Notes: a model not told the origin generated them from the sequence alone. 64,000 bases of DNA from Candidatus Latescibacterota bacterium (GCA_965222075.1 OZ244937.1:576001-640000); one strand, 5' to 3'. Shown: positions 2,289 through 55,136, numbered from the stretch's first letter. Numbers and translations: made by a program.

Positions 2289-2321
2289 CCTGCCTGCCGC
2301 GACGCTCGCGGCGCAGGCAGG
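2289..2321. repeat. 33-bp bulged palindromic element (copy 1)
   Basis: CCTGCCTGCCGCGACGCTCGCGGCGCAGGCAGG; same ends and length as copies at 10108 and 35308. Confidence 0.8.
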
Positions 2322-2330
2322 TGCCGCTGC

Positions 2331-4253
2331 CTACTGGTTGTCCACTGTGTCCTCGTCGGGCAGGGGGATAATTTTCCCCTTGCGAATGGTCAGCAAGTAC
2401 ATCCAGGCATTCTCGCGGTTGGCTTTGCCAAAGGCGATCTGGCCCGTTGCCGAGGGTATTCCGGAGAGGGATTCCAGCCTTTCGCGGAGTGTTTCCCTTG
2501 TCGTCCCACCGGCGGTGATGGCGCGCAGGACCGCCAGCATGGCATCGTAGCTGAGGGCTGCCACGATGCTCTGGTCTCTGCCAAACCGGGACCGAAAGGA
2601 ATCCACGAAGTTCCGGACGGATAAGTGTTTGCTCTGGTCGTGGTACCTGGCGACAAAGATCGCGCCTTCCACATAATCTCCGCCGTCGCGCGCCACTTCG
2701 GGGAAGTTCCACCCGTCGCTGCCCAGCAGCTGCGCCTGGATCCGGTGGAAGGCGACCTGGGGCGCTATGAGGAGCACGTCTTCACGCTCGCCGGCGATAA
2801 GGAAGCCGTCCAGGGTCTCCACGGGTTCCGGCTGGACAGTATCCGGATCGACCGGTACGGGCGGGGGTGGGGCCACGCGGATGCCGGCCAGGAGAAGCGA
2901 GTCGATTTCGCCGGCAAAGGTTTCGGGGATGCGGAGGGCCAGGCCGGCTTCTCGAATGCGTTCGAACTGCCCCCGGTAGTCGGTGGTTTCGGGTGCGTAC
3001 CATTCCTGCACGATCACTTCTGCGCCCAGTTCCTCGGCGCGGGCGGTGAATTCTCTGGTGATCCGGTCGCCGTAGGCGTCCCGGGTGGCGAGGGTGACCA
3101 GGGTTCGCAGGCCCAGCTTTCGGACGGCATAGTCGGCAATGCGCCGGCCCTGCGCGCCGGGCGTGGCGTTCATCTGGAAGATATAGGGGCTGATGGAGGC
3201 GATGCGGTCTTCGGAGGCTGTGGGGGCGATGAGGGGGATCTTGCGGTCGCCGGCCAAGAAGGCCATGGGGGTGGTTTCCTGGCTGGTGAGGGCGCCGATG
3301 ATGGCGATGACATCGTAGTGGTCGATGAGGCGCTTCGTGGCCAGCCCGGCCCGGATGACATCGCCTTCCGAATCTTCGATGACGAGGCCGACCTGGTCGC
3401 CGGAGGCGAGAGGGTTTTGCTCCCGCGCCAGCAGGATGCCATCCCTCAAATCCAGGCCCAGGGGGGTTTCCATGGGGCCGATAATACCCACTTTAAATCG
3501 GGCATGGGCGGGTTCGAGCGGCATTTCCGGGGGCAGGGCGTCTTTTTTTCCCGGGGCGGTTACCCCCTCTTTGGGCCGGGGCTTGAGTGTCTGTTGCGCG
3601 AGCGACGCCAGGCGTCCGTTGGGATACTGCTCCAGAAAGAGGGCCATTTTACGGATGCTCTCTTCCGGGCGGCCCAGTTTGCCGGGCCAGCGGGCCTGCC
3701 CGAAGGCGACGGCTTCTTCGACGATGGCCCGCCCGAAATCCGATTTGAGACGTGCGATGTCCTGGTCGGTGAGCCGGCCGGTGCCCGCCATTTGCCCGAG
3801 CCGATCCGCAGCCCGGGTTTTGAGACGGATGTCTGCTTTGCCGGTGAGGAGGCGGGCGTACTGTGCCGCAGCGCTGTAGGTCTGGCCCTGGTGAAAGTAG
3901 CAGTCTCCGATAACGAGATCGGCTTCGAGGAGATACCGGCTGGAGGGGAAGTGTTCGTAGAGTTCGTAGGCGGCGGCGATGGCCAGGTTGTATTTTTTGC
4001 GTTTGTAGTGGGATTTGGCCAGCATCAGTCTGGAGGCCGATGTGCGCTGGTTGGGGGGGTAGTGTTCGATGAGGTCCTGGAACCCCTGCCGAGCTTCCGG
4101 ATAGTTCCCGTGGATGTACCGGGTAAGCGCCCGCTGGAAGAGGGTTTCGGCCTCTCTGTTGAGGGTAAGCCCACCGGGTGGGGGAGAAGCAGCGTTGGCA
4201 GCGAAGGTGAGGAGGCCCATACAGAGGCAGAAGAGAGGGATTCGAGCCTTCAA
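2331..4253 (-). CDS. BamD-like TPR repeats fused to periplasmic type-1 ligand-binding domain (LppC/LpoA or LivK-like)
   Basis: Signal peptide; TPR helices (FQDLIEHYPPN, YEHFPSSRY); Peripla_BP-like motifs (IIGALTS, LGSDGW, ALSYDA). Confidence 0.75.
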   Translation of the reverse strand: MKARIPLFCLCMGLLTFAANAASPPPGGLTLNREAETLFQRALTRYIHGNYPEARQGFQDLIEHYPPNQRTSASRLMLAKSHYKRKKYNLAIAAAYELYEHFPSSRYLLEADLVIGDCYFHQGQTYSAAAQYARLLTGKADIRLKTRAADRLGQMAGTGRLTDQDIARLKSDFGRAIVEEAVAFGQARWPGKLGRPEESIRKMALFLEQYPNGRLASLAQQTLKPRPKEGVTAPGKKDALPPEMPLEPAHARFKVGIIGPMETPLGLDLRDGILLAREQNPLASGDQVGLVIEDSEGDVIRAGLATKRLIDHYDVIAIIGALTSQETTPMAFLAGDRKIPLIAPTASEDRIASISPYIFQMNATPGAQGRRIADYAVRKLGLRTLVTLATRDAYGDRITREFTARAEELGAEVIVQEWYAPETTDYRGQFERIREAGLALRIPETFAGEIDSLLLAGIRVAPPPPVPVDPDTVQPEPVETLDGFLIAGEREDVLLIAPQVAFHRIQAQLLGSDGWNFPEVARDGGDYVEGAIFVARYHDQSKHLSVRNFVDSFRSRFGRDQSIVAALSYDAMLAVLRAITAGGTTRETLRERLESLSGIPSATGQIAFGKANRENAWMYLLTIRKGKIIPLPDEDTVDNQ

Positions 4254-9216: not shown

Positions 9217-9218
9217 CC

Positions 9219-10079
9219 ATGAGAACGGCTGTGATTCTACTTGTGATTCTGATTCTGCTCGGGATTGCCGTTGATGCCGTATTTTTTATCGTGGATGAAC
9301 GGGAGCAGGTGGTGGTGACCCGGCTGGGAGAGCCGAAGCGTATTATACTGACCTCCGGAATCAGGTGGAAAGTGCCCTTTATCGAGCAGATCCACGTCTT
9401 CGATGATCGTCTACTTTTCAGCGATGCCGATCCGGCGCCCATTTATACAATGGACAAGAAAAATCTGATTGTGGACAATTTCGCCCGGTGGCGCATTGCA
9501 GATCCGCTCAAGTTCCTGCGGTCCGTACAGACGATTCGAGGCGCCCAGTCCCGCTTAGATGATATTATCTATGCTGCGGTGCGAGAGGAGCTGGGGCGGC
9601 GCGCCCTTTCAGAGATCGTCTCGGGCAACCGGCGGGAGATTATGCAGCGGGTCACGAAGCGGTCCCGGCAGGATGCCGAGGAGCTGGGCGTCGAGATTAT
9701 CGACGTGCGGATCAAGCGCGCCGACTTGCCGGAGGAGAACAAAAAGAATGTGTTCGATCGGATGCGGGCGGAGCGGTCCCGGCAGGCCAAGGAGTACCGC
9801 GCCGAAGGAGAGGAGATGGCGCTGAAGATCCGCGCGGAGACCGACCTGGAGGTGACGCGGCTCAAGTCCGGGGCATTTCAGAAATCGCAGTTGATCCGGG
9901 GGGAGGGAGACGCCGAGGCCCTGCGGATCTATGCCGATGCGTTCCTGCGAGATCCCAAGTTCTACGAATTTCAGCGCACCCTGGAGACCTACGAAAAGAC
10001 GCTGGGTGAGAATACTGTGGTTGTGCTGCCGTTGAGCATCGAGTTCTTCAAGTATCTCGGAACCGGAAAGAAAAAATGA
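9219..10079 (+). CDS. hflC: FtsH protease modulator HflC
   Basis: DKKNLIVDNF, DVRIKRADLP, RMRAER; follows hflK. Confidence 0.95.
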   Translation: MRTAVILLVILILLGIAVDAVFFIVDEREQVVVTRLGEPKRIILTSGIRWKVPFIEQIHVFDDRLLFSDADPAPIYTMDKKNLIVDNFARWRIADPLKFLRSVQTIRGAQSRLDDIIYAAVREELGRRALSEIVSGNRREIMQRVTKRSRQDAEELGVEIIDVRIKRADLPEENKKNVFDRMRAERSRQAKEYRAEGEEMALKIRAETDLEVTRLKSGAFQKSQLIRGEGDAEALRIYADAFLRDPKFYEFQRTLETYEKTLGENTVVVLPLSIEFFKYLGTGKKK

Positions 10080-11116
10080 GGACAGGGCATTCCGGCTGGT
10101 GGCGTGACCTGCCTGCGCCGTGCCTTGCTCGGCAGGCAGGGCTGCGTCTGCTGGATCTGCCCCTTGCGGGGAGGCAGAGACAGGCCGGGATGGTTCTGAT
10201 CTTTTGCCTTGTCATTTTCCTTCCTTTCAGCCTCTCTGCCCAGGGATGGTCCGAGCACCGGGCCGATGGCCTTCTGCTCCGGTTTCAGGAGCCCGACCGC
10301 GCGCTGGCCGGTGCGCTGTTAGGCGATTTGATTGCAGGGCGGGCGGAGATCGCGCGCAGGCTGGGGGGGGTCGCCCAGGTCCCCATAGCCGTGTACCTGG
10401 CCCCTTCGGAGGAGGTATTCAGGGCGCTGACGGGGGGACGAATTCCCCACTGGGGGGTGGGTTGCGCGTTTCCCGAAGCGGGGATCGTCGTGCTGCGGAA
10501 GCTGCCGGGACAGCCCGATGCGCTTCTACTTACCGCCCGGCATGAGATCTGCCACATTTTGCTGCACCACGCTGTGCCGGGAAGGGTGCCGGTCTGGTTC
10601 AACGAAGGGGTGGCGATGTGGGGCGCCCAGGAGTGGCGGTTGCGTCAGAGCGCCGAGGTCTTCTACGCGATGTTTTCGGGAGGGCTCGTTCCGCTTTCCG
10701 AGATTGAGGACGTGCTCAGCTTTTCATCGTCCCGGGCGCACCTGGCCTATACCGAGAGCCTCCTGGCCGTGGTCTATCTGATCCACTTGGGGGGGCCCGA
10801 TGCGGTGGGCCGGATGATTGCGGACCTGAGTTCCGGCACCCCGTTTGACGTTGCCCTCTACCGTGTAACCGGCTACACGCCCCGGCGGTTTGAAAAGATG
10901 TGGGCCGATTACGTGTGGGGGCGGTTCAGTCTGATATCGCTGATGATTGCTCCGGAGGCGCTCTGGTTTTACCTGGCGCTTCTCTTTTTGGCCGCCTATG
11001 TGGCCGTGCGCTACCGCAACCGGCGTACCGTGCGGCGCTGGGAAGACGAGGGCCCTGCAGAGGTCCTGCCCCTGCGGTTGCGCCTTCAGGTCCACCGGCG
11101 GGAGGACCGGCTGTGA
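10076..11116 (+). CDS. Peptidase MA-superfamily metalloprotease with C-terminal TM helix
   Basis: HEICH zinc motif, PVWFNEGVA, signal-like hydrophobic segment; ATGA overlap with hflC. Confidence 0.8.
   Translation: MRTGHSGWWRDLPAPCLARQAGLRLLDLPLAGRQRQAGMVLIFCLVIFLPFSLSAQGWSEHRADGLLLRFQEPDRALAGALLGDLIAGRAEIARRLGGVAQVPIAVYLAPSEEVFRALTGGRIPHWGVGCAFPEAGIVVLRKLPGQPDALLLTARHEICHILLHHAVPGRVPVWFNEGVAMWGAQEWRLRQSAEVFYAMFSGGLVPLSEIEDVLSFSSSRAHLAYTESLLAVVYLIHLGGPDAVGRMIADLSSGTPFDVALYRVTGYTPRRFEKMWADYVWGRFSLISLMIAPEALWFYLALLFLAAYVAVRYRNRRTVRRWEDEGPAEVLPLRLRLQVHRREDRL
10108..10140. repeat. 33-bp bulged palindromic element (copy 2), in-frame in the peptidase N-terminus
   Basis: CCTGCCTGCGCCGTGCCTTGCTCGGCAGGCAGG; a degenerate relative follows at about 10156-10184. 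Confidence 0.8.
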
Positions 11117-22946: not shown

Positions 22947-23666
22947 ATGGCAGGGCCTGTTATCGGTATTACCACGAGTATGGATGCGGACAACGGGGAG
23001 ATTTCCCGGCAGGTTCTGGGTCACCATTACGTCAGAGCCGTGGAGCGCGCGGGTGGGTGCCCGCTTATTCTGCCCATGGTTGAACGCCGGGAGGCTTTGT
23101 GCCCTGTTCTGGAACTGCTGGACGGGCTCATCATCACCGGCGGTCCCGGGATTACCGACGGGCTTATCGGCCGGCTTCCGGACGATCTGCCGCCGGTTGC
23201 GCCGGAACGGGACCGGGCGGATACATGGGCCTTTGAGGGGGCCAACCGGAAGGGGCTCCCGATTCTGGGGATTTGCTACGGTATGCAGTTTATTAATGCG
23301 AGATTCGGGGGTACGATCTACGCCGATGTCCAAACACAGCTTCAGGTGCAGGCCCACTCTCCCAAACGCAACGGTGGGGTGGATGTCCGGCACGGGGTTA
23401 TTCCGGAGGGCGGCTCCTGCCTGGACAGGCTGGTGAGGCAGAGAGGCAGGCTTGTGGAGGTCAACAGTTATCACCTGCAGGCGGTGGGGCAACCGGGGAG
23501 GGGGTTGCGGGTTAACGCCCGGAGTACGGACGGGCTGATCGAAGGGATCGAAACCGAGGACGGGCGTATTTTGGGGGTGCAGTTTCACCCCGAAGGACTT
23601 TCCGGCACGGTGTGGGACAAGGTTTTTGACTATCTGATGGAGCGGGCCGGGAGAGAGAGGGTTTGA
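22947..23666 (+). CDS. Peptidase C26 / gamma-glutamyl-GABA hydrolase family (PuuD-like)
   Basis: PVIGIT, LGICYGMQ, VNSYHLQAV, GVQFHPE. Confidence 0.9.
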   Translation: MAGPVIGITTSMDADNGEISRQVLGHHYVRAVERAGGCPLILPMVERREALCPVLELLDGLIITGGPGITDGLIGRLPDDLPPVAPERDRADTWAFEGANRKGLPILGICYGMQFINARFGGTIYADVQTQLQVQAHSPKRNGGVDVRHGVIPEGGSCLDRLVRQRGRLVEVNSYHLQAVGQPGRGLRVNARSTDGLIEGIETEDGRILGVQFHPEGLSGTVWDKVFDYLMERAGRERV

Positions 23667-35244: not shown

Positions 35245-35460
35245 GTGAGCAACGTTCAGAGTATACGCCACACGGTCTGGGAATGCAAGTATCATTCCTG
35301 TCTGCCTCCTGCCTGCGCAGTGCCCTGCGCTGCAGGCAGGTCGGCACAGGCAGGTGGTATGGATTCCGAAATGCCGAAGGCAAGCGCTGTATGGACAGCT
35401 TCGCCAGTATGTGGGAGGAGTTCTTCGAGAGCTGGTGCGTCAACGAGAGAGTCGGGTGGC
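35245..35460 (+). pseudogene. tnpA: Y1 transposase TnpA fragment, frameshifted and truncated
   Basis: Removing 35297-35354 gives HTVWECKYHLVWIPKCRRQALYGQLRQYVGGVLRELVRQRESRV; no HUH motif follows. Confidence 0.85.
35297..35354. repeat. Nested palindromic elements (33-bp copy 35308-35340 inside a 25-bp copy)
   Basis: CCTGTCTGCCT[CCTGCCTGCGCAGTGCCCTGCGCTGCAGGCAGG]TCGGCACAGGCAGG. Confidence 0.85.
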
Positions 35461-35789: not shown

Positions 35790-36266
35790 ATGGCGGAACC
35801 CCTTGCAGACCAAATCATGCGAAAGGTCAAACAGACCGCCGAGCTCTATCACCGGCTGATATTGGTCGTCGCACCGGCAGGCGCAGGCAAAACCACTGCG
35901 TTGCAGGATGTGCGGGATCGCACTGGTGCGCCCCTGGTAAATGTCAACCTCGAGCTTTCTCGCCGGATGCTGGAGTTGACCAAGCGCCAGCGGGCCTTAC
36001 AGCTGCCTCGTCTTCTCCGAGCGATCGTCAGCAGAGGCGGCGATGAGACGATCCTGCTCGACAACATTGAAGTCACCTTCGACACTGCTCTGAAACAGGA
36101 TCCGCTTCGACTGCTCCAGGGACTCTCCCGCAACAAGACCGTGGTGGCCGCATGGAACGGCACCATCGTTGAACATTCTTTGATCTATGCCGCTCCGGCC
36201 CACCCGGAGTACAGACGCTATCCAATGCAGGATTTTCTGGTGGCAAGCCCGGACGTGACAATATGA
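35790..36266 (+). CDS. brxF: BREX type 3 P-loop protein BrxF
   Basis: [49 protein letters not shown]; position before brxC. Confidence 0.88.
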
Positions 36267-36300
36267 AGACAACAAATTCCACTGCGAGGGAGCAGATACG

Positions 36301-40029: not shown

Positions 40030-41006
40030 GAAACGGGGCGCATGTGGCGTTCCGATTTGAAAGAACGATTCCGCCATACTGACCAAGCTACTGACCAACC
40101 CGGTGGCCTTGGGGCGAACTTGGTCACTTCTCCGCTAACCGAGAAGGCGGACTTGTGCAGTGATCAAGTTGGTCTATGGGCGGCAACTTGTTCACTGCAC
40201 AAGTTGAATCAAAACGGGGATGAGAATGACTGGCAACTACGATGAACAGAATCTATTCGACCTGGAGCCTTCCGCCAAGCCGCAGGGGCCGGTGGAATGC
40301 CTGGGCATGACCTTCGAAAACGACGAGAAACGCCGGGAGTATTTCCTGGGGAAACTGCGCGAGAAGCTTAAGGACCCGGAGTTCCGCAAGATCGAGGGAT
40401 TCCCCATTGGCGAGGACGAGGACATCCTGGCACTGTCCGATCCGCCGTATTATACCGCTTGTCCGAATCCTTTCATTGAGGATTTCATCAAGCACTATGG
40501 GAAGCCGTATGACCCGGTTATCGATGATTATCGGCGAGAGCCATTTGCTTCGGATGTGAGCGAGGGAAAGAACGACCCGATCTATAACGTTCACTCCTAT
40601 CACACGAAGGTGCCACATAAGGCTGTCATGCGGTATATCCTTCACTATACACAACCAGGAGATGTCGTTTTTGATGGTTTTGGTGGTACTGGTATGGCTG
40701 GGGTGGCAGCCCAATTATGCGGTAACCGCAGTGTCGTTGAGAGGCTTGGCCTCAGAATTGAGAAAGACGGCACAATTGTTGACGAAAAAGGTCATGCATG
40801 CGCAGTACTTGGTCGACGAAAAACAATCATTAGCGATCTTTCCCCCCTGGCGACCTATGTGTCATCACGATATAACGACTTTGATTCCTCTCAGTATTCG
40901 GACAAGAAATGTCATGATCTAATCAACTCGCTCGAAGCAGATTTCCAAGATTTATACAACACAACAAATCCCCATTCTGGCAGTTCTGGGCGTGCACTTT
41001 TCTATG

Positions 41007-42566: not shown

Positions 42567-44576
42567 TTTCTATGTATGGTCCGATGTATTCTCATGTCCC
42601 GATTGCACTTATTCCTCAAGTTTATTCGAATTTGCAGTAGACCAATCTACATACAAGCTAAAGAATAGTTTTCTCTGTCCTTCGTGTAACGCTGAGCTTG
42701 CCAAGGAGAATCTGGACCGCGTTTGGACGACACAAACTAGGCAGGTTGGTGATGGGTTCGCAAAGGTGGCGAAATGCCAACTTGTACAAGTCTGCGCAAA
42801 ATTTGGTGACCGCACCGTTCGATTTTCTCCAACGCAGTATGACCGTGATGTGCTCAAATCTGCCGAACGAAGGGGATTCGATTGGGTCCCTAAAAAAGAA
42901 TTTCCACTTGGTCGGCAAACGCGCAAAGTAAAATCAGGCTCAGGAATAGCCACAATCGCACAGATGTTTACACCTCGTGCGCTTGCTATTATTAGTCGTG
43001 CTTGGAGTCAGATCACTGAGGTAGAACGGAGCGCTTATAATTCCCCGGCTCTCTTCTTGCTTTCTTCAACTCTAACACTTCTCTCGAAACGAGAACGCTA
43101 CCGAGATGGAACAGGAAAGGGGGCGCAGTCGGGAACCCTTTACGTTCCGTCGCTTCAGATAGAGAAGAATGCGTTTGACGTTATCGAGAGAAAGAGAAAA
43201 ACGTTTGCGGCGCTGAACCTCAAGACGAAGCGGTGCAACGCAGTCGTCACCTGCCAATCTCACAACGACCTACGAAACATAGCGTCAAATTCAATTGACT
43301 ACATCTTCACTGATCCACCGTTCGGTGAATCACTCCAGTACGGCGAGCTCAATTTCTTTCATGAGGCCTGGTTCCGTATTCACACTCGGTTGGAGAATGA
43401 TTGTGTACTTAACTACGTTCATGAGAAGGATTTAGAATTCTACAAGAGGCTAATGTCCGGAGCTTTTGGCGAGGCATATAGAATCCTCAAGCCAGGAAGG
43501 TGGATAACTGTAGAGTTCCACAACTCACAAAACAGTGTATGGATAGCAATACAAGAAGCTCTTTGGCATGCAGGATTCACTATCGCTGATGTTCGAGTAT
43601 TGGACAAGAAGCAAGGCACATTCAATGTTGTTAATCGAGCTGGTGCCGTTAAACAAGACCTCGTGATTTCTGCTTACAAACCGAACGGCGGTTTGGAGGA
43701 ACGTTTCAAGATTACTGCCGGGACGGAAGATGGACTATGGGACTTTGTCCGAACCCACCTGAAACAGCTTCCGGTTTTCGTTTCCAAGGACAGTCAAGCT
43801 GAAGTCATTGCGGAACGGCAGAACTTCCTACTCTTCGACCGCATGGTGGCTTTCCATGTCCAGCGTGGTGTAACGGTTCCCATGTCAGCAGCGGAGTTCT
43901 ACGCTGGCCTGGAACAACGCTTTCCTCTGCGCGACGGTATGTATTTCCTACCCGACCAGGCTGCGGAGTACGACAGAAAACGGATGACGGTCAAGGAGGT
44001 TCTCCAGCTTCAGTTTTTCGTTTCCGACGAGACATCGGCCATCCAGTGGCTCAAGCAGCAGCTTACCAAGAAGCCCCAGACCTTCCAGGACATCCATCCG
44101 CAGTTCCTGAAGAAAATTGGCGGCTGGCAGAAGCATGAAAAGGCTCTGGAGCTTTTCGAACTGCTGGAGCAGAACTTCCTGTGCTACGACGGCAGGGGCG
44201 AAGTGCCCAGCCAGATTCATAGCTACCTCTCCTCGAACTTCAAGGAGCTGCGCAATCTTAAAAAGGACGATCCCGCGCTAAAGGCAAAGGGTAAGAACCG
44301 CTGGTACGTGCCCGATCCGAACAAGGCCGGTGACCTGGAGAAGCTCCGCGAACGAACCCTGATGCGCGAGTTCGAGGAGTACCGTGAATCCAAACAGAGA
44401 CGCCTGAAGGTGTTTCGCCTCGAAGCCGTCCGCGCTGGATTCAAAAAGGCATGGCAGGAACGCGACTACACCACCATCATCGCCGTAGCTCAAAAAATAC
44501 CCGAAAACATTCTACAGGAAGACACCAAGCTTCTTATGTGGTACGACCAGGCGGTAACACGAACGGGAGATGAGGC

Positions 44577-47345
44577 ATGAAAGAGCGGAGATGGAACGGT
44601 GCGCGATGGTGGAAGTGTGATTTTCACACGCATACCCCGGCCTCCAACGATTATGGAAAGGGCCAGAATCAGACGGCTCTTCAGAAACGATCCGCTAAGG
44701 AATGGCTGCTCGACTATATGCGTGCCGGCGTCGATTGCATTGCGATCACAGACCATAACACCGGGGCGTGGATTGATTGTGTCAAGGTAGCACTCGGTGA
44801 ACTCGAATCAGAGAATCCGGAGGGTTTCAGACCGCTTCACGTTTTCCCGGGCGTGGAGATTTCGGTCAGCGGCGGCGTACATCTATTGGCAATTCTGGGG
44901 TGCGATAAGAAAACGTCGGACATCGACTCACTGCTCGGTGCCGTTGGATTTCCTTCTGAACACAAAGGTTCAAGCGACGCCGTCACAACAAAGTCGTTTA
45001 TTGATGTGGTCGAAACGACCGTATCGAACGGTGGCATCCCAATTCCCGCCCATGTGGATGAAGAAAACGGGCTTTTTCGATTCCAGGGGACGACATTACA
45101 GCAAATATTGCAGTGCAAGGACATTTTCGCCATAGAGCTACGGGATCCGGCGTATCAGAAACCACAGCTTTACGTCAGCGAAAAACTGCGCTGGACTGAA
45201 ATACTCGGCTCGGACGCCCATCATCCCTCTGGTGGCGCGGGACGGTCATATCCGGGCAGTCACTTCACCTGGATCAAGATGGGGTCGCCCAGTATTGAGG
45301 GGGTGCGGTTAGCCTTATTGGACGGTGCGCTTTCCGTACGCCGGTCCGACCAGGATACGGATGACCCAAACGAACACGCGCCGTTTGCGTTGGATTCTAT
45401 TGAGGTTTCACAAGCACGCTACATGGGTCATTCCCAATCCTTCACTATTGGGTTCAACCCCTGGTTCAACGCTATCATCGGAGGCCGGGGCACAGGTAAA
45501 TCGACTGTTGTCGAGTTCCTTCGTATTGCCCTTCGACGGGAGGCTGAATTGCCGGAGACGTTGCAACCGGAGTTTGAACAGTATAACCGAGTCTATCAAG
45601 ACCGAGAAGACAGCGGACTGCTTACAGAAGATGCTGCCATCCGAGTGATTTGTCGGAAAGACGGCGACCGGTTTCGCGTCCAGTGGAATTCGGTCGGCGA
45701 CCTTGAACCTATCGAACGAGAAGTAAATGGACAATGGCGACGTACAGAAGGCGATATTCAGCAACGATTTCCCGTGCGAATCTACAGCCAGAAGCAAGTG
45801 TTCCAACTTGCCAAAACGCCGCTTGCGTTGCTTAAAGTTATCGATGAGGCCCCCGATGTCGATCAGCATTCCTGGTCTGAAAAATGGAAGATACAGGAAA
45901 GCCGGTTTCTTTCCCTGCGCGCCAGAGCCAGAGAAATCACGGCAGGTCTTGCAGAGGAACCGCGTCTTCGGGGGGAGTTGGACGACGTCAAACGAAAGCT
46001 GGATATCTTTGAACAGTCGGGACACGCCGAGATCCTTAAGGCCTTTCAAGAACGGACCCGCCAACAGCGAGAGGTCGCGGAGTGGGAAAAAAGCTGGACT
46101 GGTGTAGGAACGCGGTTGCGTAAAGTCGCGGCCTCAATCGTGCCGGATCATTTGGATGAGACCTCTTTCAACTCAGATTTAGCCTCAGACCATGAATTGC
46201 GAGGGCGCGCCGCCAAGACGCACAACCACTTGGATGAAATCCGCAAATCGGTCGAAGATCTTGCATCGAAAGCGGATAAAGTTGTCGCCGAGTGGCGAGA
46301 AAGCAAGGATGATTCATCTTGGAAACAGAGCGTTGATGCTGCCACGCAAGCCTACCAGGAATTGACAGAGAATCTGTCTCAAAAAGGGGCCGGCGACCCT
46401 GCGGCTTACGGCGAATTCGTACAGCGTCGGCAAGTCATTGAGCAGCGGCTGAAGGAACTGGACGAGCGAAAAAAACAGGTTGATGATCTGAACGGTGAGG
46501 CAGATACGTGCTTGCAGCATTTGCTGGAAATTCGCCGGGAGTTGACTGCGTCTCGACGAAAGTTCCTCAAGGCCGTCCTGAGCGGCAACCAGTATGTCCA
46601 GATACAGGTTGTTCCTTATGGAGCGTACGAAATGGTCGAAAGCGAGTTTCGACGATTACTCCAAAGAGGAGACGGAGGTTTTGAGAAAGACATCGGGTCG
46701 CCGAATGGCGGGGGATTGCTTGGTGAACTTTATAGGAACGGCAATGGTGCCGAGGATGTTGAACAGAATCTTGCGAGCATCAAGGACAAGATCAGGAAGA
46801 TTATCTTGAAACAATACGATACGGGAGCATTGGCAGACAAACGTTTCGCGACCCACATTGACAGACTCCCGCCCGAAGCCATTGACCGCCTCGACCTGTG
46901 GTTTCCGGAAGATTCTTTAGAGGTTCAATACAGCGCAATGGGCGATGGACAGCGTTTCCGGTCAATACAGGAAGGCTCGCCCGGCCAGAAGACCGCGGCG
47001 CTCCTGGCTTTTCTGCTTTCCTACGGTGATGAACCACTGATTATGGACCAGCCGGAGGACGATTTGGACAACCACCTGATCTATGACTTGATCGTAACCC
47101 AATTGCGGGAGGTCAAACGCCGTCGACAGGTCATTGTGGTCACGCACAACGCGAATATCGTCGTCAATGGTGACGCCGAATTGGTAGTAGCCCTCGCCGC
47201 GCGTGGCGGGGAAACACAGAAAGAGTGCGAAGGCAGTCTGCAGGAGCAACAGGTAAGAGAGACGATTTGTGCAGTGATGGAGGGTGGACGCAAGGCCTTT
47301 GAAGATCGCTACCGGCGCATCGCACTGGAAGGACGCCATGTTTAA
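44577..47345 (+). CDS. PHP phosphoesterase fused to coiled-coil ABC/SMC-like ATPase (Ppl/TrlF-like)
   Basis: PHP motifs DFHTHT, ITDHN, GVEI, AHVD, GSDAH; Walker A GGRGTGKS, signature SPGQ, Walker B MDQPEDDLD, H-loop VTHN. Confidence 0.85.
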   Translation: MKERRWNGARWWKCDFHTHTPASNDYGKGQNQTALQKRSAKEWLLDYMRAGVDCIAITDHNTGAWIDCVKVALGELESENPEGFRPLHVFPGVEISVSGGVHLLAILGCDKKTSDIDSLLGAVGFPSEHKGSSDAVTTKSFIDVVETTVSNGGIPIPAHVDEENGLFRFQGTTLQQILQCKDIFAIELRDPAYQKPQLYVSEKLRWTEILGSDAHHPSGGAGRSYPGSHFTWIKMGSPSIEGVRLALLDGALSVRRSDQDTDDPNEHAPFALDSIEVSQARYMGHSQSFTIGFNPWFNAIIGGRGTGKSTVVEFLRIALRREAELPETLQPEFEQYNRVYQDREDSGLLTEDAAIRVICRKDGDRFRVQWNSVGDLEPIEREVNGQWRRTEGDIQQRFPVRIYSQKQVFQLAKTPLALLKVIDEAPDVDQHSWSEKWKIQESRFLSLRARAREITAGLAEEPRLRGELDDVKRKLDIFEQSGHAEILKAFQERTRQQREVAEWEKSWTGVGTRLRKVAASIVPDHLDETSFNSDLASDHELRGRAAKTHNHLDEIRKSVEDLASKADKVVAEWRESKDDSSWKQSVDAATQAYQELTENLSQKGAGDPAAYGEFVQRRQVIEQRLKELDERKKQVDDLNGEADTCLQHLLEIRRELTASRRKFLKAVLSGNQYVQIQVVPYGAYEMVESEFRRLLQRGDGGFEKDIGSPNGGGLLGELYRNGNGAEDVEQNLASIKDKIRKIILKQYDTGALADKRFATHIDRLPPEAIDRLDLWFPEDSLEVQYSAMGDGQRFRSIQEGSPGQKTAALLAFLLSYGDEPLIMDQPEDDLDNHLIYDLIVTQLREVKRRRQVIVVTHNANIVVNGDAELVVALAARGGETQKECEGSLQEQQVRETICAVMEGGRKAFEDRYRRIALEGRHV

Positions 47346-48594
47346 CAGCCTGGAAGAACTGCTGCAGAAGATACGCCTTGGAGAAGATACTTCGCTGGAA
47401 CTCAAGGCCGTCCGGTTCAGGGGCGGGCGGGTTTCCGATCCGAGTCGCAATGCTCTGGCCGACGAGCTGGCGGCTATCGCCAATACGCACGACGGTGTGC
47501 TTGTTCTGGGTGTGGACGACAAGACGCGAGACATCGTCGGCATTCCGATAGATGGCCTCGAAACCGTTGAACGCTATGTCTATGAAATCTGCAATGAGAG
47601 CATCAAACCGCCTGTTTTGTTCCGCTCGTTTCGCATGCAACTTCCCGACAGTACCGGTGCTTTGCAAGCGGTGCTCAAAATAGAGATTCCACGCAGTCTT
47701 TTCGTTCACAACAGTTCAGGGAGATATTTCTATCGGCAAGGAAGTTCAATACGAGAGATGCCCTCCGATTACCTGGCACGGCTGTTTCAGCAGCGAAGCC
47801 AGGCCCGCTTGATTCGATTCGAGGAACAGCCGGTACCGCAATCGGGTATCGACGATTTATCGGAAAAACTGTGGACCAACTATACATCACGATCCGATGA
47901 ATCCGATGACATCGTGCTCCTTAAACGCGGTCTTTTGTCGAAGGAAGAAGGCGGTGCAGTGCGGGCTTCGGTCGCCGGTGTTTTGTTCTGCTGCGGGGAG
48001 CCAGAGCGCTTTTTGCCCAATGCCTATATTGAAGCCGTGCGCTATCGCGGGAAAAAGCAGGATTCCAATTATCAGGTAGACGCCCAAAAAATTTACGGCC
48101 CGCTGAATCAACAGATTGAACAAGCAATGACCTTTCTCAGGAAAAACCAGACGGTCTCAGCCGTAAAAATTCCGCATCGGGTCGAAGTGCAGCAGTTCAG
48201 CGAAAGAGCGGTTTTTGAAGCGATTGTCAATGCTGTGGCTCACCGCGATTATTCCATTTTCGCCTCGAAAATACGGTTCTTTATGTTTGAAGATCGGTTG
48301 GAAATCTACTCGCCAGGCACTCTCCCGAATACCGTGACCATTGACAGCATCTCCCTCCGTCAGGCTACCCGAAACGAACTGATTACCAATCTGCTTGCAG
48401 AGACGTCAGTGGCGGAAACGGTCGGCAATGTGGGACGTAGTTTTTATATGGAAAAGCGGGGCGAGGGTGTTCCAATCATTTTAGACGAGAGTGAAAAACT
48501 TTCCGGAAAGAAGCCAGTTTATCGACTTATTGACGACTCCGAACTGTTACTAACCATTTTTTCGGGGAGTATGGAACGTGCGGATGAGCATTGA
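47338..48594 (+). CDS. Schlafen/AlbA_2 domain plus HATPase_c_4 (RecG-C-like) protein
   Basis: GEDTSLELK, AAIANT, LVLGVDD; EAIVNAVAHRDY, LEIYSPG, RN, MEKRGEG. Confidence 0.85.
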   Translation: MFNSLEELLQKIRLGEDTSLELKAVRFRGGRVSDPSRNALADELAAIANTHDGVLVLGVDDKTRDIVGIPIDGLETVERYVYEICNESIKPPVLFRSFRMQLPDSTGALQAVLKIEIPRSLFVHNSSGRYFYRQGSSIREMPSDYLARLFQQRSQARLIRFEEQPVPQSGIDDLSEKLWTNYTSRSDESDDIVLLKRGLLSKEEGGAVRASVAGVLFCCGEPERFLPNAYIEAVRYRGKKQDSNYQVDAQKIYGPLNQQIEQAMTFLRKNQTVSAVKIPHRVEVQQFSERAVFEAIVNAVAHRDYSIFASKIRFFMFEDRLEIYSPGTLPNTVTIDSISLRQATRNELITNLLAETSVAETVGNVGRSFYMEKRGEGVPIILDESEKLSGKKPVYRLIDDSELLLTIFSGSMERADEH

Positions 48595-48627
48595 TGCAAG
48601 CGGTTGATGTTCAGGATCGGATGCACA

Positions 48628-50634
48628 ATGAGTAACTGGCGCGACCAGATCCTAAAAGAATTTACTCCCAACGTAGCCCCTCTGACCCTGGTCGCCGACC
48701 CTGATGGGCTGCTTTTGGAAGAAGGTATTCTTGCGGGTATACGCGAGCGGGGCTTTGAACTGATTCCGTTCGAGGACCCTATCGCCTTTCGGTATGCCTA
48801 CGAATCCAGGTTCCGTTCCCGCTGGGACCAGGGTGAGCAGACGGACTTGGTGGTCGTACTGCACTCCGCGGCGAGCGATCTCAACTGCTTGCCATACGAC
48901 CTGCTCCAAGCCGGTCGTCGGCTGTCGTTCAGCCTTGGCGAGATTTTTCCCAACCTGAGCTACCCCATTATTACCGCCCTGGACCGTAGAGATCTGGACG
49001 CGCTCTACGAAGCTCAGAAGCGGCACGCTCCCGGTGTGCTGGGCGATAACGCCACAAAGGAATTTGTTCTGCGGCATGTTTTCGAAATTGCACCGGAGCT
49101 CATCAGAAAGCCGTCCGATCTGCTGCGCGTGCTCCTGCGTCGCCATTACCGGAAACAGCGCATCCCGGCTCTGCTTGATGAACGCTTTGTTCAGGTTCTC
49201 CGCCAACAGGACGGTTTTGATGATTGGCCCCTCGAAACGATCATCCCGGATCGGGAGGCTTTTTTCGCCTTTCTCCAGGAACGCTGGCCCACCTTTCTCA
49301 ATCGGTCGGCAAAACAGGATAGCACTGGTGTTCACGAGGATGAGAAACCCTACGGCTTTGAGTTCCCCGGTCCTTCGGATTTGCCCTTCGACCATGATGA
49401 CATTCGTGTCTACATCGACAACCTGTTCCTTGAAGGGCTTCTCGAACCCGTACCCCACGAGCAAGCCGAATCCTTGTCGAACTCCTGGCTCGCCATTGGC
49501 ATCCGGACGGACGACCAGGCGGACCGGACGCGCCGGGTGGATGGTCTCCTCAAAGCCTTGGCATCCGACATTCCGAAGGAGGACACGCGGCACGACGACT
49601 GGTTCCGCTTCGCCGGAACCTGGGCCGAACTGGTTGTTCTGGCTCTGGATTCGGATGCGATGTTGCCGGAGCCAGCCCGTCAGAAGATAGAAGCGCTCCA
49701 AGCTCAAATCGATGCCACGCTCCTGCCCTGGCTGACAAAACGCTACGCGGGGTTAGCCAACCTGCCGCCGGTTCCGCCGGTCATGCTTCACCACATTCCT
49801 CGCTTTCTTTCCAGGCACATCAACGACGCCAAGAAACACAAGGTGGCGCTCGTCCTGGTGGACGGCCTTTCGCTGGATCAGTGGATCGTAATCCGAAAGG
49901 AGCTTGCCAGGCAACGCCCCAAATATCGGTTCCGGGAAAACGCAGTGATTGCCTGGATTCCGACCATCACGTCTGTTTCGCGTCAGGCGGCCTTTGCAGG
50001 AAAGCCACCCATCTATTTTCCGAACAGCATCCATACGACGGACAAAGAGCCGGCATTGTGGGCGCAATTCTGGGTGGACCAGGGGTTGACACAGCAAGAA
50101 ATCGCATACGCCAGGGGGCTGGGTGACGGCCCCCTGGAAAGTGTGGAGGAGATTGTTGCCCGGCCAAGGACACGCGTCGTCGGTCTGGTTGTCGATAAGG
50201 TGGACAAAATCATGCACGGCATGGAACTCGGCGCTGCGGGGATGCACAACCAGGTCCGACAGTGGGCCCGTCAAGGGTTCATAGCGAATCTTGTCGATCT
50301 GCTTCTGGAAAACGGATTCCGTGTCTACCTGGCTTCGGATCATGGAAACATCGAGGCGGCCGGGTGTGGCCGTCCTGCTGAGGGAGCCGTTGCCGACGTG
50401 CGCGGTGAGCGCGCTCGAATTTACCCCGAACCATTGCTGCGCGATCAGGTCAAAGAGCGATTTCCAGAAGCTATTGATTGGCCACCAATTGGACTGCCGG
50501 AAGACTATTGGCCTCTGCTCGGCCCCGGCCGCTCCGCGTTTGTACGTGAGACCGAGCGCCTTGTCGGTCACGGCGGAGCATCGCTTGAAGAACTGGTCGT
50601 CCCTCTTGTTCAAATCGAAAGGAGGGACACATGA
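48628..50634 (+). CDS. pglZ: BREX type 3 phosphodiesterase PglZ
   Basis: WRDQILKEF..TLVADPDGLL, LVLVDGL, PTITSVSRQ, ASDHGN, HGGASLEE. Confidence 0.92.
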   Translation: MSNWRDQILKEFTPNVAPLTLVADPDGLLLEEGILAGIRERGFELIPFEDPIAFRYAYESRFRSRWDQGEQTDLVVVLHSAASDLNCLPYDLLQAGRRLSFSLGEIFPNLSYPIITALDRRDLDALYEAQKRHAPGVLGDNATKEFVLRHVFEIAPELIRKPSDLLRVLLRRHYRKQRIPALLDERFVQVLRQQDGFDDWPLETIIPDREAFFAFLQERWPTFLNRSAKQDSTGVHEDEKPYGFEFPGPSDLPFDHDDIRVYIDNLFLEGLLEPVPHEQAESLSNSWLAIGIRTDDQADRTRRVDGLLKALASDIPKEDTRHDDWFRFAGTWAELVVLALDSDAMLPEPARQKIEALQAQIDATLLPWLTKRYAGLANLPPVPPVMLHHIPRFLSRHINDAKKHKVALVLVDGLSLDQWIVIRKELARQRPKYRFRENAVIAWIPTITSVSRQAAFAGKPPIYFPNSIHTTDKEPALWAQFWVDQGLTQQEIAYARGLGDGPLESVEEIVARPRTRVVGLVVDKVDKIMHGMELGAAGMHNQVRQWARQGFIANLVDLLLENGFRVYLASDHGNIEAAGCGRPAEGAVADVRGERARIYPEPLLRDQVKERFPEAIDWPPIGLPEDYWPLLGPGRSAFVRETERLVGHGGASLEELVVPLVQIERRDT

Positions 50635-51413
50635 ACGGACGGAAAACTCAGATCGGCTTCAGCCAACGTATCCGACTTGAGTGGTTCGAACAAACAGCCA
50701 ATTTGATACTTGCTGGGAACGACAAGACCATAATCAACGATACACTCCAGGATCTATTGCGGGACAAGGTATCCGTCGGTGGTAAATCCATTAGGGGCAA
50801 CAGGGAAAGGGTAATTACTATTCTGTTGAAGACTTGGCTCACCGTTTCTCGTGAACTGGAACAGCTACGGGACGAGGGCCTGGAAATACTCCAGGGTCTC
50901 CCCCGCAAAGACAGAATTGCTGTTCACTGGGCTATGGCGCTGGCAGCTTATCCCTTTTGGGGCGTGGTCGCCGCGCACACGGGCAGGCTCTTGCGGCTTC
51001 AAGGAACAGCCGCGGCAGCGCATGTTCAGCGACGGATCAAGGAGGAATACGGAGAACGCGAAACCGCATCACGGGCTGCTCGGCGTGTGCTTCGTTCGTT
51101 CATCGATTGGGGTGTCTTGAACGAGACGAATGACAAAGGCGTCTATGAACAAGGGAAACAATACTCGGTTGAGGAACCCAGGCTCATCGCCTGGATGGTG
51201 GAGGCGTCTCTCCGTGCTCGTTCGAACGGTTCTGCCGCTATAAGAGACCTGCTAGACAGTCCAAGCATCTTTCCATTCCACCTGGCCCACATCTCAGCCG
51301 AGCATGTGGCATCCCTCTCACCTCGCCTGGATATCCTACGGCACGGTCTGGATGATGATCTTGTGATGCTGTGTGAAGAAGGTCAGGCCGGCGTGAAGAG
51401 AGGGGCAAAATGA
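50631..51413 (+). CDS. brxA: BREX type 3 BrxA-like protein
   Basis: QIGFSQRIRLEW, AAYPFW, YGERET..RAARRVLRSFIDWGV; terminal operon position, ATGA overlap. Confidence 0.7.
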   Translation: MNGRKTQIGFSQRIRLEWFEQTANLILAGNDKTIINDTLQDLLRDKVSVGGKSIRGNRERVITILLKTWLTVSRELEQLRDEGLEILQGLPRKDRIAVHWAMALAAYPFWGVVAAHTGRLLRLQGTAAAAHVQRRIKEEYGERETASRAARRVLRSFIDWGVLNETNDKGVYEQGKQYSVEEPRLIAWMVEASLRARSNGSAAIRDLLDSPSIFPFHLAHISAEHVASLSPRLDILRHGLDDDLVMLCEEGQAGVKRGAK

Positions 51414-51455
51414 CCTTTACTGTCTGCCCTTCAGAGCAGATGGGGTGGGAGTGGA

Positions 51456-52262
51456 ATGGCCAATTTCTTTGAACAGGTTCAAGAAAAGGTCGAGCGTCGG
51501 ATTTCTAAACGTGTGCTCAAGGCCGTCGCGTCTCTGTTTACTGCCTCCCTCCTGCTGATGGTCCTGGGAGGGACCGCCGCCACCTTGGAATACCGGACCA
51601 ACTGGATTGCAAAGTGGGTCGGCAATGTGTTAACAGATACCAATGCCCGCCGGCGCACAGTAGGAGGTGTCTGGGTGCAGCTTCGGGCGCGGGCGGAGGC
51701 GCAGGAGACGTTCGACGGTGGGGCAGCGGTTTCTCTGCCCGAAAGTAGAGAGGGGCTTCCGGAGGCGGTCTCGGCCGGCCGGTTTGAGATGGAGCGGGTA
51801 CCGGAAACGGGGATGCCCGGGTTCGTGGCGGTCTGGCGGACTCCCATTGGCTCAGGAGAGCAGCGGGATATGCCTGAATTGGTGGAGAGTCTGCGGATTT
51901 TCCGGGCGGGTCTGGCGCTGCTGGAGGCAGCCGCGCTTCCGGATGTGCGGTATCGAGGGCGGGTGCAGCAGGAGGTTGCAGCGCTCTACCGGCAGGTGGG
52001 GGGGGTGGACGAAGTGGTGCAGGTCGCTGCGGATTCGGTGGTGGCGGCGGTTGCTGCGGAACTGGCACGGGAGATTACGGACCGGCTGCGGCGTGAGGAG
52101 CAGGCGGTGGTGCTAAAGGATTATCGGGCCGGTCGCGTGGGCCAGATCCTCCTGCAGCGGGGGCTGGGGCGCTATGAGGGGGAGGTCTCCTACCATGACC
52201 CGGAAACACCAGGCGTAAGCTTTGAGATTGCGCCGGAACAGGTAGCCCGGATTTTCCGGTGA
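51456..52262 (+). CDS. Hypothetical membrane-anchored protein
   Basis: N-terminal hydrophobic helix, host-like codon usage. Confidence 0.65.
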   Translation: MANFFEQVQEKVERRISKRVLKAVASLFTASLLLMVLGGTAATLEYRTNWIAKWVGNVLTDTNARRRTVGGVWVQLRARAEAQETFDGGAAVSLPESREGLPEAVSAGRFEMERVPETGMPGFVAVWRTPIGSGEQRDMPELVESLRIFRAGLALLEAAALPDVRYRGRVQQEVAALYRQVGGVDEVVQVAADSVVAAVAAELAREITDRLRREEQAVVLKDYRAGRVGQILLQRGLGRYEGEVSYHDPETPGVSFEIAPEQVARIFR

Positions 52263-54411: not shown

Positions 54412-54518
54412 AATATGAGGAGATGAGGTTCTGCTTGACAGAATGGATTTCGTTTGCGAGTATTCTACAGTTCAATTATATACTGGATTTGCGGCCAGAG
54501 TGTCGCTTTTGAGTGAGT

Positions 54519-55136
54519 ATGGATGCTGGTGAGGATATACAGAACGTCCTGATCCAGCCCGAGGCCATCCGGAAGAAGGTGCAGGCCCTTGGGCGGCAGA
54601 TCTCCGAAGACTACGGCACCCGGACCTGTCTGCCTGCCCGCCTGTCTGCCGGCTTGGCACAGGCAGCGCAGCGCGGCAGGCAGGCCGATTCGGTGGTACT
54701 CATCGGCATTTTAAAAGGCGCCATGTTCTTTCTGGCCGACCTGGCCCGAGCGATTACAAGCCCGGTCGAGATCGAGCTGATGTCGATTTCCAGCTACGGT
54801 TTTTCCACCCGGAGTTCCGGGGTCGTGCGCATCCTCAAGGATCTGGACGTTAGCATTACGGACCGCCATGTTCTGATCGTTGAGGATATTGTCGATACCG
54901 GCCTTACCCTGAGCTACCTGCTGTGCAACCTCCAGGCCAGACACCCCAAAAGCCTCAGGGTATGCACGCTCCTGGACAAGCCTGCCCGCCGGTCTGTGGA
55001 TGTCTCGATCGCCTATTTGGGATTTACGATTCCGGACGAATTCGTGGTGGGGTACGGGCTCGATTTTAACCAGCGGTACCGAAATCTGCCTTTTATCGGC
55101 GTTCTCAAAGCCGAATGCTACGGGTTGGACGAATAA
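54519..55136 (+). CDS. hpt: Hypoxanthine phosphoribosyltransferase with 20-aa insertion
   Basis: [34 protein letters not shown]. Confidence 0.95.
54625..54684. repeat. Nested palindromic elements, 60 bp in-frame inside hpt
   Basis: CCTGTCTGCCTGCCCG[CCTGTCTGCCGGCTTGGCACAGGCAG]CGCAGCGCGGCAGGCAGG. Confidence 0.85.

Follow-up and report, generated by a model that had tools for sequence, protein, structure and literature searches.

A stretch of 64,000 nucleotides (nt) from the genome of a Candidatus Latescibacterota bacterium (GCA_965222075.1, OZ244937.1:576001-640000; 'the window' below, with positions counted from its first letter) carries several copies of a very small palindromic element, here called the CCTG element after its terminal tetranucleotide. 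The copies belong to a family that is real, mobile and recent and that has about 250-330 members in this genome. They are missing from relatives at all 17 loci with alignable flanks and were inserted without target duplication at a purine^pyrimidine (R^Y) step, most often the self-complementary G^C or A^T. We think it probable that this is a selfish, non-autonomous miniature insertion family, whose hairpin would be recognised by an enzyme supplied in trans and which would have become compatible with coding sequence by survival. An initial annotation, made from the window alone, had already proposed a dispersed, non-autonomous and very small insertion element; the genome-wide copies and the empty sites in relatives bear this out.

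The genome is a single contig of 5.36 Mb with 59.3% G+C. The pattern CCTGYCT-N5-30-AGRCAGG has 6 matches within the window, compared with a mean of 0.01 in 100 dinucleotide shuffles. The scan of the whole genome for the termini that the initial annotation had suggested, run here with a spacer of N5-30, gives 263 matches; three simulations of the genome with a fifth-order Markov model gave 7, 3 and 6, so that copy number, which the annotation had proposed to compare with shuffled sequence, lies far above it. Matches without a smaller match inside them ('minimal' copies) number 243. A relaxed census, in which one substitution is allowed per terminus and a hairpin is required, yields 334 hairpin-like minimal copies; the genome read backwards, used as its control, gives 59 hairpin-like hits, a figure that is not reduced to minimal copies. 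The shuffles, the simulations and the backwards genome together rule out chance or base composition as the origin of the matches. Copies are 19-44 nt long, and the commonest lengths are 33 (93 matches), 27 (54), 30 (20), 25 (17) and 36 nt (13).

Each copy is one imperfect palindrome with CCTGYCTG at one end and CAGRCAGG at the other. By an architecture rule of our own, 222 of the 243 minimal copies can be oriented, and they then read CCTG, CCTGY, inner stem, loop, inner stem, AG, RCAGG. There are two deep sub-types, in which position 9 (C or T) switches together with position -5 (G or A): Y=C with R=G in 129 copies (the GC-type) and Y=T with R=A in 97 (the GT-type), with mixed combinations in only 3. 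In the minimum-free-energy DNA fold of the GC-type, outer and inner stems of 7 bp each are separated by a 2-nt bulge (-16.1 kcal/mol, z about -4.5). In that register the GT-type has a C.A mismatch; its fold shifts by four bases and leaves a 5' CCTG tail. The outer stem and bulge initially ascribed to all types therefore stand for the GC-type and not for the GT-type. The linked change of Y and R agrees with the shifted register, but there are two states only and the sub-types may equally well be two old lineages.

The inner stem had been described as variable but compensating, and this covariation is real. Among the 41 distinct 33-mers, 93.7% of stem cells pair, as against 31-41% when the partner is slid by one to three columns. 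Single stem pairs display CG, AT, GC and TA, and several vary among three or four kinds of Watson-Crick pair. The same holds for the 18 distinct 27-mers. An asymmetry of G.T wobbles was considered as a sign of one functional strand and was dropped because the orientation rule itself rewards wobbles. Rfam has no match at the gathering score in the whole window, on either strand.

Evidence for recent insertion comes from 20-kb stretches compared with a genome of the same genus (G001, about 88-96% nucleotide identity over matched stretches) and one of the sister genus (G004). We examined 27 element loci, of which 17 have alignable flanks in one or both of these genomes and 10 do not; a further stretch, L119, with three copies, has no counterpart in either. 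The element is missing in all 17. In 12 of them the gap is clean and coincides with the element, apart from 0-2 bases by which the boundary is ambiguous, as in the relatives in which the initial annotation had proposed to look for empty sites. Three of the 17 comparisons are of a copy in an insertion sequence (IS) with paralogues of that IS in G004 and are not orthologous sites. No copies were found in the scanned G001 and G004 loci. In the hypoxanthine phosphoribosyltransferase gene, hpt, the occupied site ...CGGA[60 nt]CCGAT... corresponds to an empty ...CAGA^CCGAT..., and a clean 36-nt site, ...TTGCCGG[36 nt]TCCGC..., to an empty ...TTGCCGGTCCGC... A 33-nt copy lying inside a 27-nt copy is missing as a single 60-nt block in both relatives. 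Further empty sites are found between other genomes: a copy 10 nt past a transposase-like gene in G021 is missing in G009, and a 30-nt copy in hpt of G020 is missing in G002. The tested insertions are thus younger than the split of this genome from its congener.

No target-site duplication is present at any empty site, the 12 clean ones included, as the initial annotation had supposed. The base at position -1 is a purine in 198 of the 222 oriented copies and that at +1 a pyrimidine in 195. Weaker preferences are mirrored further out (C at -4 answered by G at +4, a lack of A at -2 by a lack of T at +2), giving C-N-S-R^Y-S-N-G. These flanking bases belong to the target and not to the element, because both are present in the empty sites. 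Where the flanks are unique (155 copies), the bases at -1 and +1 complement each other in 89, compared with 60.6 in permutations (maximum 81); complementarity of at least 2 bp shows no excess (17 copies, 22.4 expected). Since the excess is confined to the first pair, the target is short and symmetric, in most cases a G^C or A^T step, and insertion into pre-existing palindromes is ruled out.

For the placement of copies, genes were called with a crude codon-usage finder of our own (4096 genes, 86.8% of the genome). Of the minimal copies, 149 are intergenic, 91 (about 37%) lie in open reading frames (ORFs) and 3 at gene edges, so that the non-coding 13% of the genome holds 61% of copies, an approximately tenfold excess per base. 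There is no enrichment in convergent gaps, where 13 copies occur in 67.6 kb; divergent gaps have 43 in 153 kb. Insertion venues include intergenic DNA, dead IS elements, genes, other repeats and the family's own copies, 16 of the 243 sitting inside another copy. Clusters occur in decayed transposase genes (DDE_Tnp_1, DDE_Tnp_4 and UPF0236/ISKra4-like), and the dead DDE transposases at these clusters come from unrelated IS elements, which have ends of their own. One site of a separate repeat resembling a MITE (a miniature transposable element with inverted repeats) holds three different sub-types, in different copies of the repeat. That repeat is ~190 nt long, has 51 matches to its 30-nt core in the genome, and many of its copies stand at contig ends in G001.

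Orientation is unbiased in every respect considered. With origin and terminus taken from GC skew, leading and lagging strands carry 104 and 118 copies (p 0.38); relative to transcription the two orientations number 45 and 39 within genes, and 39 and 44 between tandem genes. Repetitive extragenic palindromic (REP) sequences can form inverted doublets of characteristic spacing, called REPINs (REP doublets forming hairpins), which replicate as a unit. There are no such doublets here: the 40 neighbour pairs within 300 nt comprise 24 direct, 10 inverted and 6 unoriented ones, with spacings scattered over 0-292 nt.

Copies within genes tend to be compatible with translation. The host genes are real, conserved ones and include hpt, purL (two copies), a gene for a 1921-residue UvrA-like protein (two loci), two AcrB-type pumps, hsdR, and genes for a hydantoinase/oxoprolinase, a thiamine pyrophosphate (TPP) enzyme, a molybdenum hydroxylase subunit and a zinc alcohol dehydrogenase. 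Copies in them are usually predicted to add 7-20 in-frame residues, in keeping with the peptide additions that had been proposed from the window. The suggested comparison of lengths in coding sequence also gave a positive result: lengths are divisible by 3 in 113 of 149 intergenic copies, as against 81 of 91 in all ORFs (Fisher p 0.012 vs intergenic), 60 of 64 in genes with a score of at least 40 (p 0.0019) and 43 of 45 in genes with a score of at least 100 (p 0.002). A stop triplet on either strand is present in 20 of 124 distinct sequences, compared with 42-56 in shuffles (minimum 30). Of 75 oriented in-gene copies of such lengths, 43 start at codon position 3, which reads Leu-Pro-Ala...Gln-Ala-Gly, 19 at position 1 and 13 at position 2. 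One loop of Hpt has been hit twice independently, by 60 nt in this genome and by 30 nt in G020, which belongs to another genus. All five examined genomes of genus g2 (loci L086, L088, L089, L091 and L099) have a further segment of 16-20 residues in the same loop; it lacks recognisable element termini and may be an old decayed insertion or ordinary loop variation.

In a phylum sample of 168 genomes, more than 20 copies per genome are reached only within one order, of which about 53 complete genomes are included. Seven of its genomes hold 105-284 copies (G000, G009, G021, G003, G019 and G002 of the bacterial family f1, and G024 of f2) and five hold 22-88 (G020, G018, G001, G013 and G017), while close relatives of the high-copy genomes have 0-16, the range over the order being 0-284. 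Dominant sub-types differ among G003, G019 and G000. There have thus been bursts of differing sub-types in different genomes of one order, although the relatives compared are not phylogenetically independent. Outside the order no genome exceeds 8 copies, some of them true members (for example, in G138). Viral contigs, searched with a stricter pattern, gave 119 loci with 127 matches; several contigs have 3-5 copies, some copies are identical to ones in this genome, and 104 of the 127 have a length divisible by 3. One genome of the same class, G081, has no match to the element pattern but 55 to a control, the same pattern reversed without complementing; another family of hairpin repeats is presumably present there.

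How such a family would be maintained can be sketched as follows. Phages or prophages carry copies and may spread them. Lineages with lengths divisible by 3 and no stops on either strand would survive insertion into genes, and the family would drift to that form; in a genome that is 87% coding, lineages surviving their landing would leave more descendants, and the family may have become coding-compatible in this way. Intragenic copies would be translated as 7-20 extra residues in tolerant loops. The hairpin, or its cruciform, would be what the mobilising enzyme, acting in trans, recognises. This is the least certain step. Conservation of the hairpin suggests an enzyme that reads structure, and selection on single-stranded DNA structure, as put forward in the initial annotation, is plausible. 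An HUH/Y1 nuclease of the kind encoded by RAYT genes (REP-associated tyrosine transposases) would be the leading known candidate; a dimeric, blunt-cutting enzyme fits equally well. Indeed, given symmetric ends, a symmetric target and no strand bias, such a cutter fits at least as well as a single-strand mechanism like that of IS608.

Some of the data weigh against parts of this scheme. Five of the 17 gaps are ragged (window 2289 and 10108, genome 1990253, 2055206 and 2059151). As 76% of intergenic copies also have a length divisible by 3, much of that signal is sub-family structure; the 25-nt class, which is not of such a length, persists with 17 copies; and the home-made gene calls are too crude for coding adaptation to be read into them closely.

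The Y1 step meets more objections, which also tell against the link to HUH/Y1 enzymes (IS200/IS605, or REPs with their RAYT) drawn in the initial annotation. Element number does not follow IS200 number, since Y1_Tnp (IS200-type) matches are 32 in G004 and 75 in G038, with only 2 and 1 elements. G024, with its 132 copies, has no RAYT-like match even at E 0.01. A Y1 enzyme is weakly favoured by the RAYT-like genes and the intact IS200 tnpA of this genome and by bacterial family f1, in which 14 genomes with a RAYT-like match (E 1e-8 or better) hold 2-284 copies and 8 without one hold 0-6; this co-occurrence is loose, is confounded by relatedness and is broken by G024. There is no orientation bias with respect to replication or transcription, and the symmetric R^Y target differs from the one-sided tetranucleotide target of IS608. 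Protein searches in this genome and its relatives distinguish three RAYT-like types (X, Y and Z), each flanked by its own GTAG- or GTGG-tagged REPs and not by CCTG elements. The search for a RAYT or Y1 gene flanked by the hairpins, advised at the outset, therefore gave none: the sole CCTG element that adjoins a RAYT, in G021, is itself an insertion, which G009 lacks.

Individual candidates were rejected on similar grounds. This genome holds two RAYT-like genes and, by Pfam Y1_Tnp, one intact IS200-type tnpA (2071880-2072323) and one broken one. The end hairpins of the intact tnpA copy are unrelated to the elements, no copies lie nearby, and IS200-rich relatives hold 1-2 elements. RAYT X seemed promising from its presence in G000, G009 and G019. 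It is accompanied by GTAG REPs of its own, however, and searches did not detect it in G021, G003, G002 or G024. The REP of RAYT Z shares the 10-mer CCTGTCTGCC with the GT-type, but both Z and its REP are absent from this genome; from the shared 10-mer, common ancestry of that REP and the GT-type element is possible.

The RAYT genes and the second Y1-like gene of this genome have features of their own. RAYT X lies within a 1.25-kb module with 82-83% nucleotide identity to G009 and G017, in different contexts. The module has probably been transferred horizontally, judging from these contexts and from hpt, which has only ~58% protein identity between the same genera. In this genome it takes the form of a REPtron, the arrangement in which a single-copy RAYT gene stands among copies of its own REP (3241486-3242936, L202). 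Direct repeats of ~120 nt, each with two GTAG-tagged hairpins, enclose RAYT X together with a small ORF upstream of it; this genome has only 3+3 copies of the REP. Canonical REPtrons occur in G013, G014, G015, G001, G003 and G018 (L191-L195 and L220-L229), where the RAYT is flanked by several GGTGG-GGCAGACATTCCTGTCTGCC copies. The second Y1-like gene (1858864-1859472; 202 residues, with HIH and YxxNP motifs) stands immediately upstream of an hsdR-like gene of a type I restriction system, is preceded by one or two truncated duplicates (region 1857878-1859472) and has no Pfam match at E 1e-4 or better.

The family might instead be a classical REP family, in which a cognate RAYT (TnpA-REP) would act on single-stranded DNA at the replication fork, cutting and rejoining it in the manner proposed for GTAG REPs and REPINs. 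We regard this as rather unlikely, although the resemblance is considerable: an imperfect bulged palindrome of 20-40 nt, a conserved foot tetranucleotide, hundreds of copies and several sub-families, with RAYT-like genes in this genome and in most high-copy relatives, the 10-mer shared between the REP of RAYT Z and the GT-type, and a literature in which REPs inside genes and 'double-foot' REPs appear (PMC3733652, PMC6006769, to the extent of the text available from them). The tag is CCTG/CAGG, however, and not GTAG, GTGG or CGTC; every RAYT found is flanked by different cognate REPs, type Z being absent here; the high copy number of G024 is reached without any RAYT-like hit; and REPIN-like doublets, convergent-gap enrichment and strand bias are all missing. 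The symmetry that speaks against a REP would suit a double-stranded cut-and-paste or copy-in MITE, with a dimeric enzyme reading terminal inverted repeats of 8-9 bp and cutting bluntly at a short symmetric site. The repeats CCTGYCTG/CAGRCAGG are indeed perfect, self-complementary G^C and A^T steps are in surplus at the target C-N-S-R^Y-S-N-G, neither orientation predominates, and a blunt cut would leave no duplication, as is found. A reader of terminal repeats would nevertheless have no need of the compensating changes that keep the inner palindrome. Known DDE transposases, moreover, make staggered cuts and target duplications, and no candidate gene is linked to the copies, those at the clusters being dead DDE transposases of unrelated IS elements. 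A MITE of this kind is accordingly improbable.

Two further explanations dispense with a dedicated enzyme or with mobility as the reason for the repeats. Hairpin oligonucleotides released when the host processes palindromes (for example, by hairpin nucleases at forks) might be captured at breaks by repair, or copied by template switching, the arms owing their complementarity to fold-back synthesis and not to selection. No cognate enzyme emerged from the Y1/RAYT searches, insertion is blunt, duplication-free and at loosely defined sites, and the arms are near-perfect complements despite sequence turnover, all of which such a process would accommodate. Against it, the termini, a 2-nt bulge that is fixed and the stability of the two sub-types argue for specific recognition, and single sub-types have burst in single genomes whose close relatives have almost none, an on/off-like activity; to our knowledge no documented process yields hundreds of identical insertions. 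We consider it very improbable. A motif that selection keeps because it benefits the host, whether by binding a protein, by stabilising or terminating transcripts, or as a signal for the nucleoid or for replication, is harder still to credit. It would agree with the concentration of copies in non-coding DNA, with the position of some just past stop codons (for example, window 2289) and with the roles credited to REPs in the available text of PMC3733652. It is opposed by the lack of any gene-relative orientation preference or convergent-gap excess, by the sharing of 0 of the 17 tested loci even within the genus, by copies in dead IS elements and inside each other, and by the absence of Rfam matches in the window. 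The selfish, coding-compatible insertion family remains the reading that we prefer. It can be taken a step further, to a distinct class of minimal hairpin transposons without a cognate RAYT, moved bluntly and symmetrically at R^Y by an enzyme or host pathway new to repeat mobility, with a coding-proof lineage that is a steady source of peptide insertions across the order and its phages; this we offer only as a tentative idea and doubt more than we believe.

The four loci initially described in the window (2289, 10108, 35297/35308 and 54625/54641) read as reported, 33-nt lengths included. Their coordinates, together with those of neighbouring genes (one of them BamD/TPR-like, TPR being the tetratricopeptide repeat), of the bacteriophage exclusion (BREX) island and of related loci elsewhere, are collected in Table 1.

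Table 1. Element copies, host and neighbouring genes in the window, and related loci elsewhere. Positions are those of the window unless marked as genome positions or given by locus.
Feature	Coordinates or occurrence	Strand	Remarks
33-nt GC-type copy, intergenic	2289..2321	-	Downstream of the BamD/TPR-like gene, 9 nt from its stop
BamD/TPR-like gene	2331-4220	-	Neighbour of copy 2289
33-nt GC-type copy	10108..10140	+	Between hflC (9231-10079) and the likely true start of the next gene (10190)
Degenerate hairpin-like stretch, possible decayed copy	10141..10176	.	Adjoins 33-mer 10108
Match to the termini pattern, not a family member	23416..23450	+	No hairpin, no architecture match
Truncated IS200/IS605-type tnpA remnant	35246..35460	+	Host of nested copies; edge of BREX-3 island
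25-nt GT-type copy, split in its loop	35297..35354 (35297-35307 + 35341-35354)	-	Nested 33-mer inside
33-nt GC-type copy lying within the loop of the 25-nt one	35308..35340	+	Termini pattern, hairpin
BREX-3 BrxF	35787-36266		Island gene
BREX-3 BrxC-like gene	36301-40029		Island gene
ISKra4-family transposase	41023-42453		Island gene
TrlF/Ppl-type anti-phage ATPase	44577-47345		Island gene
Hypoxanthine phosphoribosyltransferase gene hpt	54519..55136	+	Hosts the composite; NCBIfam TIGR01203, E 1.7e-62
60-nt composite of nested copies	54625..54684	.	In frame in hpt; inner copy 54641-54666
MITE-like repeat, examples	L114:3941-4168; L115:16545-16742; L116:4838-5083		One site a hot spot for hairpin elements
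RAYT X	Genome 3242104-3242871; also G009, G017, G012, G019		Own GTAG-CGCAAAC... REPs (GTAGCGCAAAC-type)
RAYT Y	G002, G009, G018, G020, G021		Own CGAGGGCAGGATGCCCTCG REPs
RAYT Z	G001, G003, G013-15, G018		Own GGTGG-GGCAGACATTCCTGTCTGCC REPs

Copy 2289 adjoins a terminator-like hairpin and has a DNA fold of -16.1 kcal/mol (z -4.4 to -4.7). It is missing in G001, where the gap of 36 nt comprises the 33 nt and 3 ragged bases, and an identical sequence was found 5 times among the viral-contig matches. Copy 10108 is missing in both relatives, with larger and ragged gaps. The degenerate copy initially reported near 10156 falls within the adjoining stretch. That it is absent together with the 33-mer in G004 stands in its favour (G001 retains the 3' part only), but its boundaries are ragged, and it counts as no more than a possible decayed copy.

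The sequence of copy 35308 is present 5 times in the genome. Together with the 25-nt copy around it (25 + 33 = 58 nt), it interrupts and frameshifts the N-terminal coding part of the tnpA remnant, which reads ...HTVWECKYH, then the insert, then (L)VWIPKCRRQALYGQ... and falls below Pfam Y1_Tnp detection. The frameshift fits as an exception to coding compatibility because the host remnant was already dead. To its right lies an island of lower G+C (53-58%, window 35787-52000), which has the interrupted remnant at its left edge.

The hpt gene is 618 nt long here, compared with 525-537 nt in the ten matches that head the list for relatives in other phyla, and the composite adds 20 residues in a surface loop. 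Its empty site in G001 is clean (...CAGA^CCGATG...), and it is also missing in G004. In public sequencing runs, contigs of two near-identical strains (X1 and X19) bridge the insert and retain the composite. Near window 54665 the contigs of two near-identical public strains have an extra GGC, an in-frame 3-nt length variant inside the element. A more distant strain, X2, has no piece across the site, and the contigs of X23 end at the element. No empty allele within the population was seen in these runs, which has no bearing on activity.

How very short palindromic repeats move is a long-standing question, especially for CGTC REPs and for the small dispersed repeats (SDR) of cyanobacteria, which have no associated transposase. 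The CCTG elements provide a clean natural experiment, with recent and base-precise insertions, empty sites in a congener, contrasts in copy number between sister genomes of up to 0 against more than 100 (132 in G024 and 10 or fewer in its 20 congeners, 244 in G000 and 24 in G001, 161 in G003 and 3 in G007) and copies in viral contigs; such contrasts make a presence/absence hunt for the enzyme directly feasible. They also indicate that the coding density of a host can shape a selfish element, through lengths divisible by 3 and few stops. Loops of 7-20 residues added to housekeeping enzymes, twice independently in the case of Hpt, bear on the origin of insertions and deletions in protein loops. 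In practice, gene callers, the calling of start sites and alignments will be misled by the copies in genomes of this clade.

Among known systems, the REP, BIME (bacterial interspersed mosaic element) and REPIN sequences with RAYT, which are GTAG- and CGTC-tagged palindromic repeats, come closest in form (Di Nocera et al. 2013, PMC3733652; Quentin et al. 2018, PMC6006769; Bertels and Rainey 2011, PMC3116915). As far as the available text of these papers goes, both groups are GC-rich imperfect palindromes of 20-40 nt with a small bulge, a foot tetranucleotide, hundreds of copies, sub-families and a patchy distribution, and both have some copies in frame inside genes, repair genes included. The lack of a dedicated transposase is shared with CGTC-tagged REPs, and the tag at both ends with 'double-foot' REPs. 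REPs lie mainly outside genes, past their 3' ends and between tandem or convergent ones. Unlike REPs, all copies have the CCTG/CAGG tag (by construction of the search) and extended termini, CCTGCCTGY...AGRCAGG, without GTAG or CGTC. In the portions of text available, a CCTG or CAGG tag occurs in neither of the REP papers compared, PMC3733652 among them. The elements differ further in that no RAYT is flanked by them, in the lack of REPIN doublets, in being nested in one another, in having 37% of copies in ORFs with no preference for the 3' side of genes or convergent gaps, and in a length and stop content biased to coding compatibility. Our literature search found no description of the family by its terminal sequences and none of a bias to lengths divisible by 3 in intragenic REPs; the supplements of PMC3733652, on REPs in ORFs, were outside it and might list comparable cases.

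Hairpin recognition is plausible for the elements as for IS200/IS605, target duplication is absent from both, and an IS200-type tnpA is present in the genome. Here, however, one hairpin is the whole element, where IS200/IS605 have two ends, left and right, with different hairpins and a one-sided target of 4-5 nt. The elements have a symmetric target and show no strand bias, whereas orientation tied to the lagging-strand template is an IS200/IS605 criterion in the available text of PMC6006769. The IS200 copy in this genome has unrelated end hairpins, and IS200-rich relatives are almost without elements. MITEs of the DDE type share the terminal inverted repeats with the elements, but they measure 70-300 bp and have target duplications, while the elements are 19-44 nt long and have none. 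Rickettsia palindromic elements (RPE) are likewise palindromic repeats in frame in genes that stay functional, to which they add peptide segments. At about 100-150 bp they are far longer than CCTG elements. They are CGTC-tagged, according to the part of PMC3733652 that treats them. They are also confined to an obligate intracellular lineage.

The closest functional likeness is with the SDR of Nostoc and other cyanobacteria. These are reportedly (Elhai and colleagues, 2008) mobile modules of ~21-27 nt, with conserved ends, hairpin potential and nested copies. SDR are defined by consensus sequences of their own and by insertion into HIP1 or heptamer repeats. We know of no in-frame residence in conserved genes and no bias to lengths divisible by 3 among SDR, both of which are found for CCTG elements. 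The two are alike in very small size, in precise and duplication-free insertion at a short palindromic site and in having no known enzyme, a likeness of function only; they differ in phylum and in sequence, which is unrelated, and a loose R^Y step here contrasts with one fixed octamer there. SDR5, for example, inserts precisely between the third and fourth bases of HIP1, according to the available text of PMC4390886. The CCTG family thus works like a REP or an SDR, yet it lacks what defines REPs (the tag, a cognate RAYT and REPIN doublets) and what defines MITEs (the duplication and the size). Within the REP/SDR kind it stands out by having no known driver and an unusually clear coding-compatible design.

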